From positions 1 to 64,000 of IMG/VR virus record IMGVR_UViG_3300020179_001470: 64,000 nucleotides of DNA; one strand, given 5' to 3'. Origin of the DNA: a virus. The first letter of the stretch is position 1. Each line of letters opens with the position of its first letter. The notes under the pieces were generated by a model that was not told where the DNA came from, did not search any database, and saw only the letters and a program-made list of their open reading frames with translations. Made by a program: the position numbers and the translations under genes. Shown piece by piece: positions 45,970 to 46,894 of this stretch.

Positions 45970-46085
45970 TTTCATCAGAGGTAAAACTTTGGTGGGGGTG
46001 GTTGTACACCCCATAGTGAATCCTGAATAAACAGGGTGGAATTTATCTGGAGATTAACTTCTCACTCACTAAATACCTTTTATTT
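45970..46085 (+). ncRNA. Putative tracrRNA (split copy of the reRNA scaffold)
   Basis: Paralogous to 48324-48429 with covarying stems; loop GTTGTA and 3' ATACCTTT are both complementary to the repeat's 3' half. Confidence 0.8.
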
Positions 46086-46140
46086 TTAAATAAGGGAATC
46101 ATTCACAATATGTTGATTCGTAATAAGATGGGTTAACCAT

Positions 46141-46894
46141 GTTGTAAATACCTCTTATTTGAAAGGTGTATACAACTGGTTTGAACTGTTTGCACCTCCC
46201 TGAAGAGTTGTAAATACCTCTTATTTGAAAGGTGTATACAACTATGACCAACAGAACTTGATGTTAAATCAAGTTGTAGATACCTCTTATTTGAAAGGTG
46301 TATACAACTGAAATTCCACCTAATGACTGGAATCCAGGTTGTGGATACCTCTTATTTGAAAGGTATATACAACGTTAATCCTCTTTGATTGTGAGGTTAT
46401 GTGTTGTGGATACCTCTTATTTGAAAGGTACATACAACCGATGAACCGGGTCCTTATCAAATTGAGAGCGTTGTAAATACCTCTTATTTGAAAGGTGTAT
46501 ACAACGCAATAACCCAATTCCATAATTACGGTATAGTTGTGGATACCTCTTATTTGAAAGGTGTATACAACAGAGAATGATTCAACGGCCATTCCAATAA
46601 GTTGTAGATACCACTTATTTGAAAGGTGTATACAACGTCACTTGTGGCCACTAAATCTGTTGTAGATACCACTTATTTGAAAGGTGTATACAACATTTGT
46701 TCTTTATGTTGATGTGGAGGACGCACTGTAACGCTAAGGTTACTGGTTGTAGATACCTCTTATTTGAAAGGTATATACAACTAGTCGTATTAGTACCGAT
46801 ACTACAAAAACGGAAAGGTATATACAACATGTAGACTCTTGGGTGTTGTGTTAACCACGTTGTAGATACCACTTGTTTGAAAGGTATATACAAC
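46141..46894 (+). CRISPR. CRISPR array: 12 repeats (one 5'-truncated), 11 spacers
   Basis: 36-nt repeat, consensus GTTGTRRATACCWCTTATTTGAAAGGTRTATACAAC, at 46141, 46207, 46273, 46338, 46403, 46470, 46536, 46601, 46659, 46746, 46813 (3' 16 nt only) and 46859. Spacers are 30,30,29,29,31,30,29,22,51,31,30 nt. Decay increases to the right. Confidence 0.98.

Follow-up and report, generated by a model that had tools for sequence, protein, structure and literature searches.

How arrays first joined TnpB-type nucleases, and how effector-only phage and TranC loci get spacers, are open questions that meet at the locus described here, in which a predicted phage nuclease is accompanied by a CRISPR array. 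An earlier note, made from the DNA alone, had proposed that the array repeat is the terminal hairpin of the nuclease's own guide RNA (reRNA), re-capped to suit a host Cas1-Cas2. The locus was compared with its phage relatives and with bacterial arrays.

The locus and its setting

The window (64,000 nt, the whole stretch of DNA that was analysed) comes from record G000, a 73-kb fragment of a jumbo phage from lake (freshwater) DNA with a CheckV completeness estimate of 22%. A syntenic relative, G001 (310,691 bp, estimated to be 93% complete), is collinear with G000 and carries the CRISPR locus in the same place. The locus consists of a gene for a TnpB-derived, Cas12f-like nuclease (476 aa) and an array of 11 repeats, flanked by two copies of a guide-RNA scaffold. 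The best explanation is a miniature type V CRISPR locus carried by the phage and belonging to the transition from TnpB to Cas12; it would be TranC-like, with the Cas12f-MG119/Al3Cas12f group as the nearest. Its features are as follows.

45915-45989, + strand: putative promoter and 5' flank of the upstream scaffold, within a 262-column stretch that is identical in the close relative L148 at 257 columns
45990-46109, + strand: upstream scaffold copy (the "tracr copy" of the earlier note), with a core at 45990-46085, then a weak hairpin and a decayed tail
46110-46140, + strand: 31-nt segment from the scaffold tail to repeat 1, a putative leader or fixed "guide 0"
46141-46894, + strand: CRISPR array, 11 full 36-nt repeats in 8 sequence variants
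46177-46206, + strand: spacer 1 (leader-proximal), matched by a protospacer on co-occurring lake contigs
46506-46535, + strand: spacer 6, likewise matched by a protospacer on co-occurring lake contigs
46813-46828, + strand: 5'-truncated repeat unit, 3' half only (GAAAGGTATATACAAC), recognized by repeat comparison
46924-46937, + strand: remnant of a truncated terminal repeat beside the gene, aligned by eye with the last repeats of L001 and L148
46975-48405, + strand: effector gene, predicted TnpB-derived Cas12f-like RNA-guided nuclease, 476 aa, from Pfam, NCBIfam and structure matches
48339-48445, + strand: second scaffold copy, fused to the repeat 3' half (a reRNA-like natural single guide), from homology and a 15/15 match
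48446-48475, + strand: guide position of the fused scaffold, where homology with close relatives breaks

An Rfam scan of 45000-49500 gave no CRISPR repeat family and one sub-threshold snoRNA match. Of 12 stretches found in IMG/VR, 8 were left out as single matches without an array, mostly in coding sequence. A motif similar to the flank at 45915-45989, GTTC(A/T)TTGAAA(A)TATT, precedes both scaffold copies of the relative L016.

The effector nuclease

The predicted protein matched the Pfam models Cas12f1-like_TNB (6.2e-14) and OrfB_IS605 (2.4e-9). It scored 151.5 bits with the NCBIfam model guided_TnpB (cut-off 100) and 108 bits with the Cas12f2 model, which is below the cut-off of 450. The best solved relative was 9NZO/9NZR (E 1.1e-56), identified in the available text of PMC13186708 as Al3Cas12f of the Cas12f-MG119 family. 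Residues 78-414 were aligned, and the first 77 or so and the last 60 or so residues lay outside the alignment. The RuvC acidic residues D233, E331 and D416 were invariant in 26 relatives; the effector family as found numbers 256 members. A type V-F-like protein was defined as compact (about 400-700 aa), with a RuvC fold, a zinc-ribbon (TNB) insert and catalytic acidic residues; the effector has these features of a compact nuclease, as well as significant likeness to a characterized type V-F member (9NZO/9NZR). In an effector tree, which held 7 of 15 rows and had no root, two long branches met, and the tree was not used for direction. The "Cas12 hacker" family is a different, larger family and was set aside.

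The guide-RNA scaffold

The two scaffold copies were 70% identical over 91 nt (45990-46080 against 48339-48429). The second copy begins inside the effector gene and covers its last 22 codons; where its stems differ from those of the upstream copy, compensatory changes keep them paired. When the upstream copy was aligned with 12 other scaffolds, 15 of the 22 predicted pairs kept pairing through two-sided changes among the 13 sequences. The tail hairpin of the upstream copy is weak (-3.5 kcal/mol, z -0.8), and the decayed tail ends in CACAAT at 46109. Fused and split guide forms are both encoded at the locus, with the structure kept in both.

The loop of scaffold hairpin 1 and the end of the repeat were seen by eye to change together, reading GTTGTA and TACAAC in the window clade, GTTGTG and CACAAC in L016, and GTTTCA and TGAAAC in the bacterial relative L163 (34% identity). 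The anti-repeat pair, also compared by eye, is ATACC/GGTGT in the window and CAACC/GGTTG in L016. In the folded L163 scaffold GUUUCA was unpaired, and hairpin 1 was not settled by the fold.

In L012, L005, L001 and L146/L147 a fused scaffold stands at the head of the array as "repeat 0", with a 30-nt guide between it and the full repeats. The most divergent members of the family, L012 and L021, have the fused downstream form only. Among close relatives the fused and the split form occupy the same upstream position (L146, L149 and L150 against the window, L148 and L001). Past the fused scaffold homology stops sharply: similarity between the window and L148 ends at 48445 and resumes near 50400, and L146 and L147, 99.7% identical over 2646 nt, diverge completely right past the scaffold end.

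The array

Repeats in the window start 66, 66, 65, 65, 67, 66, 65, 58, 87 and 113 nt apart. The spacers measure 30, 30, 29, 29, 31, 30, 29, 22 and 51 nt and are followed by a 77-nt interval that contains the half repeat at 46813-46828; such half units are also present in L001, L146, L149 and L150. Throughout the relatives most spacers are 29-31 nt long, and units measure 65-67 nt. The truncated last repeats of L001 and L148 continue into TTGAAGTTTTTAATAT, as at 46924-46937. The 46110-46140 segment is identical in L148 and nearly identical in L001, and the spacers are common to neither.

Full repeats of the relatives comprise 44 variants among 65. The 5' half varies freely inside phage arrays (nt 6-16), and in a census of 75 repeat units a GTTGT-like 5' end was missing from 10. 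Repeats 1 and 2 have the same sequence both in the window and in L001. The window repeat folds into a hairpin (-10.9 kcal/mol, z -3.7); the L012 repeat gave -2.5 kcal/mol (z 0.24).

Homology of the repeat with the guide tail

The 64-kb window was searched for the two halves of the repeat with at most one mismatch. Repeat nt 6-20 (AAATACCTCTTATTT) occurred six times, five of them in repeats; the single outside match was 46071-46085 (14/15). The chance expectation was 0.03, and six occurrences were reached in none of 100 shuffles. Repeat nt 22-36 (AAAGGTGTATACAAC) occurred 12 times, 11 of them in the array, and the single outside match was 48431-48445 (15/15; chance expectation 0.02). Both outside sites are matching ends of two copies of one scaffold element. 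From these sequence matches, homology of the repeat with the hairpin that terminates the guide scaffold of the effector itself is supported.

The earlier note had claimed that repeat nt 6-20 match the end of the tracr copy and that nt 22-36 equal the reRNA end, and both claims were confirmed at the sites just given. Ahead of the match the repeat has the five bases GTTGT where both scaffold copies have TCACT, so the further claim that the 5' GTTGT alone is extra stands. The note had also placed the 3' end of the tracr copy at 46085; the match is there, but the copy runs on to 46109. The repeat loop is 5 nt longer than the loop in the 3' scaffold copy, and the loop of scaffold hairpin 1 also reads GTTGT.

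Likeness to type VI-B repeats

Judged by its sequence, the whole 36-nt repeat belongs to the Bacteroidota type VI-B (Cas13b) repeat family, which is a new observation. A search pattern in which 21 positions of the repeat were fixed gave 35 stretches, 34 of them in Bacteroidota or Chlorobiota/Ignavibacteria records and most of them arrays of 66-nt period. The bacterial repeats so found were identical to the window repeat at 23-31 of 36 positions, of which 21 were forced because the pattern had been built from the phage repeat. Unguided BLAST also paired phage with VI-B repeats (e.g. 36/40 and 35/39), and L161, a Cas13b locus found by protein alone, has a repeat identical to that of the window at 27 of 36 positions. 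The first 16 nt of the L005 repeat are also those of the Flavobacteriales repeat L115, and the two match at 28/29 by BLAST and 32/36 by count. The VI-B repeat of Flavobacterium jejuense has the same fold as the window repeat (-9.8 against -10.9 kcal/mol), and the window repeat would be transcribed in the sense that VI-B repeats have relative to cas13b in L152.

Eight large ORFs beside such arrays comprised four Cas13b over the cut-off, two below it and two that were not Cas13b. Cas13b was over the cut-off in four of five such bacterial genomes (model NF038190, 678-820 bits in three of them and 311 bits on a contig-end fragment in the fourth), and Cas1 lay on another contig in four of the five. 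F. jejuense has a VI-B array with a phage-like repeat and a separate locus with Cas9 and type II Cas1. Because Cas13b was present in 2 of 301 sampled Bacteroidia genomes, one of which was the reference genome itself, unbiased sampling yielded one independent VI-B locus.

The window repeat thus has the VI-B format (36 nt, GTTG...ACAAC ends, a hairpin, spacers of about 30 nt). There is no cas13b beside the array and no Cas13b (NF038190) in any of the five phage records, and the likeness is one of repeat format only. Part of it may be a broader Bacteroidota repeat habit, since the TTTGAAAG core is also present in the repeat of the bacterial relative L163 and in the II-C repeat of F. jejuense. No effector relatives were found in 45 bacterial loci, and comparison by eye of the phage leader with VI-B leaders gave no clear common motif. 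The bacterial arrays are uniform in repeat (e.g. 17/17 and 14/15 identical). In 29 of the VI-B-like arrays the upstream flank could be seen, and at least 7 of these start, by eye, with a half repeat, about 30 nt and then a full repeat.

Adaptation genes and array turnover

No Cas1, Cas2 or Cas4 was found in G000, and none scored over the cut-off in the five records G001-G005, including G004, which is estimated to be 100% complete. A Cas1-like fragment with a stop in G002 gave 14.9 bits, below the cut-off.

Between the window and L148 the effector DNA is identical at 1395 of 1431 positions (97.5%) and the scaffold and leader at 257 of 262, and no guide is shared. Among nine array versions, none of the 33 cross-version pairs had guides in common. 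The gene-proximal (oldest) spacers also differ between the window and L148, so whole-array exchange fits better than stepwise growth at the leader end. One 19-nt guide stands beside the 3' scaffold in L148 and beside the upstream scaffold in L150.

In Flavobacterium columnare, according to the available text of PMC8092290, VI-B arrays are filled in trans by the II-C Cas1, and deletion of cas1 stops VI-B acquisition. The same text gives the II-C acquisition motif as NNNNNTAAA and places the motif common to II-C and VI-B repeats at the leader-distal repeat end. On our reading of the orientation, that end corresponds to the ACAAC end of the phage repeat, which is already guide tail. In huge phages, as stated in the portions available of PMC7162821, Cas1, Cas2 and Cas4 are missing from most CRISPR loci, and some of these loci have repeats in common with hosts.

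Several statements of the earlier note bear on these results. Its description of 36-nt GTTG...CAAC repeats with spacers of about 30 nt as a Bacteroidota format agrees with the VI-B arrays, which match at 23-31 of 36 positions, and the in-trans use of a II-C Cas1 by a VI-B array in Flavobacterium is published (PMC8092290, in the text available). The note would have given up its reading had a phage cas1/cas2 been found elsewhere or had the array been identical across populations. None was found in G000 or in G001, estimated to be 93% complete, and the arrays of relatives differ.

Spacers, protospacers and PAM

Spacer 1 matched 30/30 inside contigs of 1063, 1272 and 1176 nt from the runs X20, X21 and X22, respectively. 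The flanks of this protospacer are unlike the array, and the 5' flank ends in TTTA. Spacer 6 matched 30/30 inside a 2182-nt contig of X22, where the 5' flank ends in TTTG; at the same place X16 shows loose ends. Some 104 nt further on, the 2182-nt contig has a second match, to the first 19 nt of the array unit 46782-46800. The lake runs consist of contigs that end at each repeat, and gaps in cover in X21 and X22 were not counted as evidence. Two RNA runs contained 0.06-0.09 of the sequence words sought. From these two flanked protospacers a PAM of TTTR is probable. T-rich PAMs are reported for the Cas12f-MG119 family in the accessible part of PMC13186708.

In the phage's own record, in G001 and in all collected loci, matches to the spacers were confined to the arrays themselves, so no self-targeting was seen. 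The best match in 50,697 phage records was a chance-level one of 26 nt (E 0.2), and the first 20 nt of spacer 1 gave no stretches in IMG/VR. The spacers of the 45 bacterial loci, compared with the phage sequences, gave repeat-to-repeat matches only and hence no host link.

Proposed explanation and alternatives

The explanation that we put forward is that of a type V mini-locus with a guide-tail repeat in VI-B format, loaded by host Cas1-Cas2 and then reshaped by recombination; taken as a whole we give it an even chance. Array transcripts would supply units of repeat 3' half and spacer. The last six bases of the repeat, TACAAC, would pair with the hairpin 1 loop GTTGTA, and GGTGT with ATACC near the scaffold 3' end, so that the crRNA would complete the scaffold in trans. 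The nuclease would then cut the DNA of rival elements beside the T-rich 5' motif TTTR. The repeat would be the terminal hairpin of the scaffold in the 36-nt VI-B format, with GTTGT...ACAAC ends and 30-nt spacers. The insertion of new spacers would fall to a host Cas1-Cas2 like those that act on VI-B arrays in trans. We infer this acquisition route because the phage records searched hold no cas1, cas2 or cas4 and the arrays turn over fast, which makes insertion by host Cas1-Cas2 most likely. Recombination among phage arrays would afterwards shuffle the units.

Several observations weigh against loading by the host. The phage is not linked to any II-C-bearing host, Cas13b is rare in the sampled Bacteroidia (2 of 301), and G000 is estimated to be 22% complete. 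The phage repeats are mixed (8 variants in 11, 44 in 65), whereas canonical copying of the first repeat by Cas1-Cas2 should give uniformity. By eye the phage leader lacks clear likeness to VI-B leaders, and the TTTR adjoining the protospacers fits the effector, not the F. columnare II-C motif NNNNNTAAA. The proposal of the earlier note, that the repeat is a guide tail in host format and that its spacers are loaded in trans, is partly supported: the homology and the VI-B format hold, and re-capping, with the direction that it implies, is not preferred. As the likeness spans all 36 nt, a re-capped hairpin is no better supported than a host-type repeat matched by the scaffold tail.

In that reverse direction the lineage would have taken over a host VI-B-type repeat, by capture or by conversion, and the reRNA-like tails would be secondary fusions of scaffold and first repeat through the 15-nt homology. 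We regard it as possible but on balance doubtful. The VI-B likeness includes the 5' half, which a Cas12f-type handle would not be expected to need; the L005 repeat comes near that of Flavobacteriales L115; and bacterial arrays that begin with a half repeat and some 30 nt resemble the phage order of tail, guide and repeats. Exchange of fused and split forms at one upstream position (L146, L149 and L150 against the window, L148 and L001) is in keeping with such fusions, and in L163 the repeat ends differ and the scaffold loop has changed too, which shows that ends can be swapped if the loop follows. Yet a scaffold overlapping the gene 3' end with a guide just beyond it, as in the window clade, is the TnpB layout; the most divergent members, L012 and L021, have the fused downstream form only; and reRNA splitting is the published model, so far as the text available of 10.64898/2026.03.27.714800 goes. 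The mixed repeats counted above, the many half repeats and the odd spacer lengths (15-24 and 51 nt) would instead be expected if no integrase acted in the present life of the phage and arrays diversified by recombination, deletion and cassette exchange with co-infecting phages and possibly host arrays. Replacement of the entire spacer content, old end included, at about 2.5% DNA divergence, the sharp homology break at the scaffold end and the 19-nt guide that L148 has beside its 3' scaffold and L150 beside its upstream one point the same way. Recombination as the sole source of diversity nevertheless seems unlikely to us, given that spacers mostly of 29-31 nt in units of 65-67 nt have the regularity of an integrase ruler, that identical repeats 1 and 2 in the window and in L001 are expected after a recent insertion, and that TTTR adjoins both protospacers. 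The spacers must also originate somewhere, and sharing in none of the 33 cross-version pairs implies a large pool.

The full VI-B-type hairpin kept by the window repeat, which L012 does without (-2.5 kcal/mol, z 0.24), might mainly engage a host Cas13b, either through guides of the phage's choice or as an RNA decoy, leaving the 3' half to the phage nuclease. The sense of the repeat, matching that of VI-B repeats relative to cas13b in L152, would suit this, and any partner would be the host's, the five phage records having no Cas13b. We think it improbable: Cas13b is rare (2 of 301 genomes), free variation of nt 6-16 within arrays speaks against tight recognition by a protein, and other relatives function without the hairpin. 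It is likewise rather improbable that one array combines all these roles, being extended by host II-C enzymes, read by the phage nuclease through the repeat 3' half and bound by Cas13b, for borrowed guides or as a decoy, through the full hairpin, with the guide-handle ends and scaffold loop tuned to the VI-B/II-C repeats of hosts and recombination over the 15-nt homology flipping fused and split forms. Genes for cas1-cas2 of the phage's own could lie in the 78% of the genome outside G000, which CheckV puts at 22% complete. That would be most improbable in view of the collinear G001 and of G004, estimated to be 93% and 100% complete, which have none, and of the 14.9-bit fragment with a stop in G002, which is below the cut-off.

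Through its repeats the phage family is connected with arrays of a family that II-C Cas1 has been shown to load in trans. Acquisition thereby becomes open to direct test, as both the leader-repeat and the class of integrase are defined. A few close relatives display all stages: a fused guide heading the array, both forms, and the split form only. The nuclease is moreover compact, its natural scaffold is short (about 107 nt) and its PAM, from the two protospacers, is probably TTTR.

Comparison with known systems

Jin et al. 2025 is reportedly the primary paper on TranC (transposon-CRISPR intermediates). Later papers, in the text available (10.64898/2026.03.27.714800, 10.1101/2025.09.28.678669), describe TranC as having a reRNA split into tracrRNA and crRNA, repeats of 32-38 nt and arrays of 3-20 repeats; a member located in phage, CauTranC9, is mentioned in the former. 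The phage locus is alike in its compact TnpB-lineage nuclease beside a short array without adaptation genes and, judged from those later descriptions, in a putative guide derived from the reRNA by a split into tracrRNA and crRNA. It differs in having both guide forms, in relatives that switch between fused and split at the same site, and in a repeat of the type VI-B family.

The Cas12f-MG119 family, as described in the accessible text of PMC13186708, has proteins of 433-488 aa that use a tracrRNA and a crRNA, and Al3Cas12f comes from a Bacteroidota-like contig assigned to Alistipes. This is the best solved relative, of similar size; its tracrRNA and crRNA and its T-rich 5' PAM would correspond to the putative split guide and the probable TTTR PAM of the phage locus. 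Unlike it, the effector has ends that do not align, and its score with the Cas12f2 model is below the cut-off.

With IS200/IS605 TnpB the locus shares a guided_TnpB score over the cut-off, a scaffold that overlaps the gene 3' end with the guide beyond, and homology among relatives that stops exactly at the scaffold end. It differs in its array and second scaffold copy. No Y1_Tnp transposase (TnpA) was found in the five phage records and the locus is syntenic, and it is not counted as a mobile IS200/IS605 element.

Huge-phage loci (Al-Shayeb et al. 2020, PMC7162821, in the portions available) include compact arrays, spacers against other phages and V-F variants, and some arrays that share host repeats may use host Cas proteins. 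Repeat sharing is described there for phages without interference genes of their own. Here an effector is kept, and the likeness of the repeat is to host arrays of a different CRISPR type.

VI-B arrays filled in trans, so far as described in the available text of PMC8092290, are alike in their 36-nt repeats, GTTG...ACAAC ends, hairpin, 30-nt spacers and lack of cas1/cas2 at the locus. They differ in that the phage effector is a predicted DNA nuclease reading the spacer downstream of each repeat, that none of the five phage records has cas13b, and that repeats vary much more within the phage arrays. In the literature searched, which comprised listings and passages of papers, VI-B-type repeats were nowhere described for a type V or TranC system. 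Effector-only phage arrays and TranC/Cas12f systems are already known, and VI-B-type repeats on such a locus are the new part. The double likeness of the phage repeats, to their own guide tail and to Bacteroidota VI-B repeats, suggests that host enzymes may load the spacers of the phage.

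Phage record and CRISPR locus

The 72,946-bp virus record, whose first 64 kb form the window, has an estimated completeness of 22%. It is collinear with a related virus record (G001; 310,691 bp, estimated 93% complete), and the window is therefore a piece of a jumbo phage. Matches between the two by blastn were of 65-79% identity in conserved order, covering 23,191 of 72,946 bases. At least 0.45 of the sampled words were present in 22 DNA runs labelled lake water metagenome, 8 of which may be the source. Adjacent NifU-like (2.1e-52) and Fe-S_biosyn/IscA-like (6.6e-16) genes of iron-sulphur cluster assembly lie at 43565-44315, and a cytidylyltransferase-like gene (1.2e-13; 45463-45879) lies directly upstream of the CRISPR locus. 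A similar gene on an unrelated viral contig (L006) contains the 19-nt repeat motif by chance. Coding sequence of two other viral contigs (L002, 5541-5590; L007, 3161-3210) carries GTTGTAAATAG...TTTGAAAGGTATATACAAC over 49 nt; this stretch, repeat-like at both ends without an array, is probably due to chance.

The region 45,900-48,500 was inspected by direct reading, and the following features were recorded.

end at 46109, decayed tail of the upstream scaffold copy, ending CACAAT
46110-46140, 31-nt segment between decayed tail and repeat 1
46141-46894, CRISPR array of 11 full 36-nt repeats (start-to-start spacing 66, 66, 65, 65, 67, 66, 65, 58, 87, 113)
46813-46828, repeat unit truncated at its 5' end
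46924-46937, remnant of a truncated last repeat
46975-48405, effector ORF, 476 aa

Irregular units at 46637-46745 hold a 22-nt and then a 51-nt spacer; short spacers (15-24 nt) also recur in four related phage loci (L012, L148, L149, L150).

Repeat and scaffold homology

Repeat nt 22-36 occurred 12 times in the 64-kb window (chance expectation 0.02), 11 times inside the array and once, at 15/15, at 48431-48445; the earlier note's identification of this segment with the end of the downstream guide-RNA scaffold was thus correct. Repeat nt 6-20 (one mismatch allowed) occurred six times (chance expectation 0.03), five in repeats and one at 46071-46085 (14/15). The two extra-array matches are not independent coincidences, being sited at corresponding ends of an element that is present twice (45990-46080 and 48339-48429, 70% identity over 91 nt). 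The second match had been read as the 3' end of the upstream copy; the homology stood, but the copy continues past 46085 into a hairpin of low stability (-3.5 kcal/mol, z -0.8) and then the decayed tail, to 46109. The 5 nt preceding the match are GTTGT in the repeat versus TCACT in both scaffold copies, so GTTGT is extra, as claimed. As a second correction, the loop of the 3' copy is shorter by 5 nt than the repeat loop.

The scaffold alignment comprised 13 copies, taken from the window and from eight relatives. The consensus fold opens with a hairpin of 6 bp and a six-base loop, after which a GUGA/UCAC stem encloses three hairpins; of its 22 pairs, 15 are maintained through two-sided changes. 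Compensatory changes preserve this fold in both window copies, which therefore are, or recently were, functional RNAs. The hairpin 1 loop is complementary to the last six repeat or tail bases, and by eye both covary across relatives: GTTGTA loop with TACAAC end in the window and five phage loci (L001, L005, L012, L146, L148), GTTGTG with CACAAC in both L016 copies, and GTTTCA with TGAAAC in a bacterial relative (L163). The fit is only partial in L014/L015 (GTTGTT, 5/6) and in L021 (ATTGTA with TACAGC). Near the scaffold 3' end, also by eye, ATACC lies opposite repeat GGTGT in the window and CAACC opposite GGTTG in L016. In each case the partners lie on separate molecules. The pairings suggest that a crRNA, through its repeat 3' half, would complete the scaffold in trans, forming with it a pseudoknot and a short duplex.

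Effector

Pfam matches of the effector were Cas12f1-like_TNB and OrfB_IS605; of the NCBIfam models, guided_TnpB scored above its cut-off (151.5 bits, cut-off 100) and Cas12f2 below (108 bits, cut-off 450). The best solved relative was 9NZO/9NZR (E 1.1e-56, residues 78-414). This is Al3Cas12f, a Cas12f-MG119 family member whose source contig is assigned to Alistipes; it is described as an obligate dimer with tracrRNA plus crRNA and a T-rich PAM (PMC13186708). The family comprised 256 proteins at E <=1e-10 among 4975 candidates, several on 250-340 kb contigs and mostly annotated at source as IS605 OrfB transposase. D233, E331 and D416 were invariant across 26 aligned members. No Y1 transposase was found in the five phage records searched. 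Matches at E <=1e-20 were found in 5 of 401 sampled Bacteroidota genomes; in the closest (L163, 34% identity) the scaffold is homologous, the array of 9 repeats has core GTTTGAAAGG but different repeat ends, and Cas1 is encoded elsewhere in the genome.

Comparison with type VI-B repeats

A scan of 185,579 species genomes was made with a pattern in which 21 of the phage repeat positions were fixed. It found 35 stretches against a rough chance yield, at even base use, of <1; 34 were in Bacteroidota or Chlorobiota/Ignavibacteria records, nearly all of these being arrays of 66-nt period. The bacterial repeats were 23-31/36 identical to the window repeat (Bacteroides MAG L112, 31; L121, 30; Flavobacterium jejuense, 29), and the last 19 nt of the F. 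jejuense repeat are identical to those of several phage repeats. The genes nearby also point to VI-B. Among eight large ORFs neighbouring such arrays, four were Cas13b above the NCBIfam cut-off (773-817 bits) and two below it; one of the others had no match and one was an unrelated TPR protein. Five genomes with such arrays had Cas13b above cut-off in four cases and Cas1 on another contig in four. Relatives of the phage effector were absent from all 45 bacterial loci, and no Cas13b is encoded in the five phage records searched.

Because the pattern itself forces 21 matches, independent support was sought. The repeat of a Cas13b locus identified by protein alone (one of two matches in 301 genomes) was 27/36 identical and likewise ended ATACAAC, and unguided BLAST of phage against bacterial repeats gave 36/40, 35/39 and 28/29. 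The window and F. jejuense VI-B repeats form the same two-part hairpin (-10.9 kcal/mol, z -3.7, versus -9.8 kcal/mol, z -3.5). The phage repeat is a member of the type VI-B repeat family. The earlier note had proposed comparison with type II-C repeats as well. F. jejuense Cas1 is of type II (NMENI) and adjoins Cas9 and an array of 46-nt repeats (L162, G006:C7, 10853-14011; 41.6 units of 76 nt); as this repeat starts GTTG, contains TTTTGAAAG and ends CACAAC, the II-C and VI-B repeats of this species have ends and core in common.

Fused and split guides among relatives

Every stage between fused and split guides occurs among the relatives. In L012 and L021 (effectors 40% and 44% identical) the scaffold follows the stop codon, its tail leading into a ~30-nt guide and four to seven full repeats. 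In L005 an orphan scaffold is accompanied by a guide and three repeats. An upstream scaffold with array and a downstream fused scaffold are both present in L001, L016, L146/L147, L148 and the window, the downstream scaffold being trailed by one or two repeats in L001, L146 and L147. Only the upstream scaffold and array are present in L014, L018 and L015. The tail at the upstream site is fused and clean in L146, L149 and L150, ending GGGTATATACAAC; in the window, L148 and L001 it is the decayed one, and the conserved 31 nt are present. The 15-nt homology of repeat and tail is what conversion between split and fused forms by recombination needs, and such conversion may have occurred.

In the 246-kb record of L016, classed as provirus, the regions 2574-2960 and 4364-4965 hold two scaffold copies that share a promoter-like motif, and two arrays of different repeats, starting GGTGT and GTTGTG and both ending CACAAC. 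One 19-nt guide start, GGAAACGCTGGTTTTATCC, stands after the 3' scaffold in L148 (3597-3633) and after the upstream fused scaffold in L150; the two scaffold positions may have exchanged guides, or the target may be conserved.

Over 2646 nt L146 and L147 have 99.7% identity, but beyond the fused scaffold end they are unrelated. Homology of the window with L148 likewise ends exactly at the fused scaffold 3' end and resumes near 50400; a DNA methylase gene (48708-49529; N6_N4_Mtase 5e-36) lies within the variable stretch 48446-50400. Such a break next to the guide resembles the right end of a transposon, or else a hot spot of recombination.

Adaptation genes, spacers and targets

Models of Cas1, Cas2 and Cas4 had no match in the whole record, and none above cut-off in five related records (G001-G005), two estimated to be >=90% complete; G002 has one Cas1-like fragment of 14.9 bits, below cut-off and containing a stop. 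A cognate phage cas1 or cas2, which would have contradicted the earlier note, was thus not found in these records. Arrays identical across populations were not found either: nine array versions had no guide in common in any cross-version pair at 20/24 or better. L148 and the window have none in common, and are identical at 257/262 nt of putative promoter, scaffold and leader, 1395/1431 of effector DNA and 576/602 of the upstream 600 nt. Duplicate records do share guides (L001/L151 8/8, L014/L018 4/4, L146/L147 9).

For protospacers, contigs of four lake runs (four studies of one year and one habitat, possibly one campaign) were compared with the array. Spacer 1 matched 30/30 inside 1.0-1.3 kb contigs of X20, X21 and X22, and spacer 6 (46506-46535) inside a 2.2-kb (2182-nt) X22 contig; both also matched loose ends in X16. 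Protospacer flanks differ from the array, and the 5' flanks end TTTA (spacer 1) and TTTG (spacer 6). On the same X22 contig, ~104 nt from the spacer 6 match, lies a match to 46782-46800, the initial 19 nt of a further array unit, so one element appears to be targeted in a cluster.

Probable working and possible origin of the locus

In the most likely working, array units would use the scaffold as their tracrRNA, the scaffold would also act as a single guide directed by its own flank, the nuclease would cut competitor DNA flanked by TTTR, and a host Cas1-Cas2 tolerating the VI-B-like repeat format would install new units. The precedent cited for loading by the host was confirmed: the Flavobacterium study describes a VI-B array loaded in trans, acquisition being abolished by cas1 deletion, and GTTGT at the leader-distal repeat end as a motif common to II-C and VI-B in nine species (PMC8092290). 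GTTGT...ACAAC would present two like half-sites, one per strand, and the idea of a capped tail would then make sense. Several observations oppose or qualify such loading. Phage repeats are mixed (8 variants in 11 in the window, 44 in 65 in relatives, nt 6-16 variable) versus uniform bacterial arrays (17/17 or 14/15 identical); 10/75 units have no 5' end; the window and L148 have different spacers at the gene-proximal, old end; and homology breaks at the scaffold end. The leader does not clearly resemble those of VI-B arrays, and the TTTR flank agrees with the effector and not with the F. columnare II-C motif. Recombination between arrays therefore certainly contributes, and it may be the sole process acting in the phage.

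A VI-B-type repeat may have been captured, or a phage repeat converted, as favoured by likeness to VI-B repeats over the full length and by the half repeats, truncated at 5', that with ~30 nt precede the first full repeat in at least 7 of 29 bacterial arrays with visible upstream flank (by eye; L101, L103, L105, L106, L110, L112, L126). This is the layout of the phage scaffold tail, guide and repeats. Alternatively the array may have been derived from the guide tail, as favoured by the way the scaffold overlaps the gene, as in TnpB, and by the fused form in the most divergent family members.

Comparison with known systems

The general kind of system, TranC-like and a phage array without adaptation genes, is already known. 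TranC systems are described as pairing a nuclease derived from TnpB with an array and a split guide, adaptation genes being absent, and one is phage-borne (10.64898/2026.03.27.714800). In a study of huge phages, Cas1, Cas2 and Cas4 are commonly absent and repeats are sometimes common with hosts (PMC7162821). A literature search, with supplementary repeat tables outside its scope, found no statement of a type V/TranC effector with a VI-B-family repeat and switching between fused and split guides; this combination, with guides fused or split among close relatives, appears to be what is new here.
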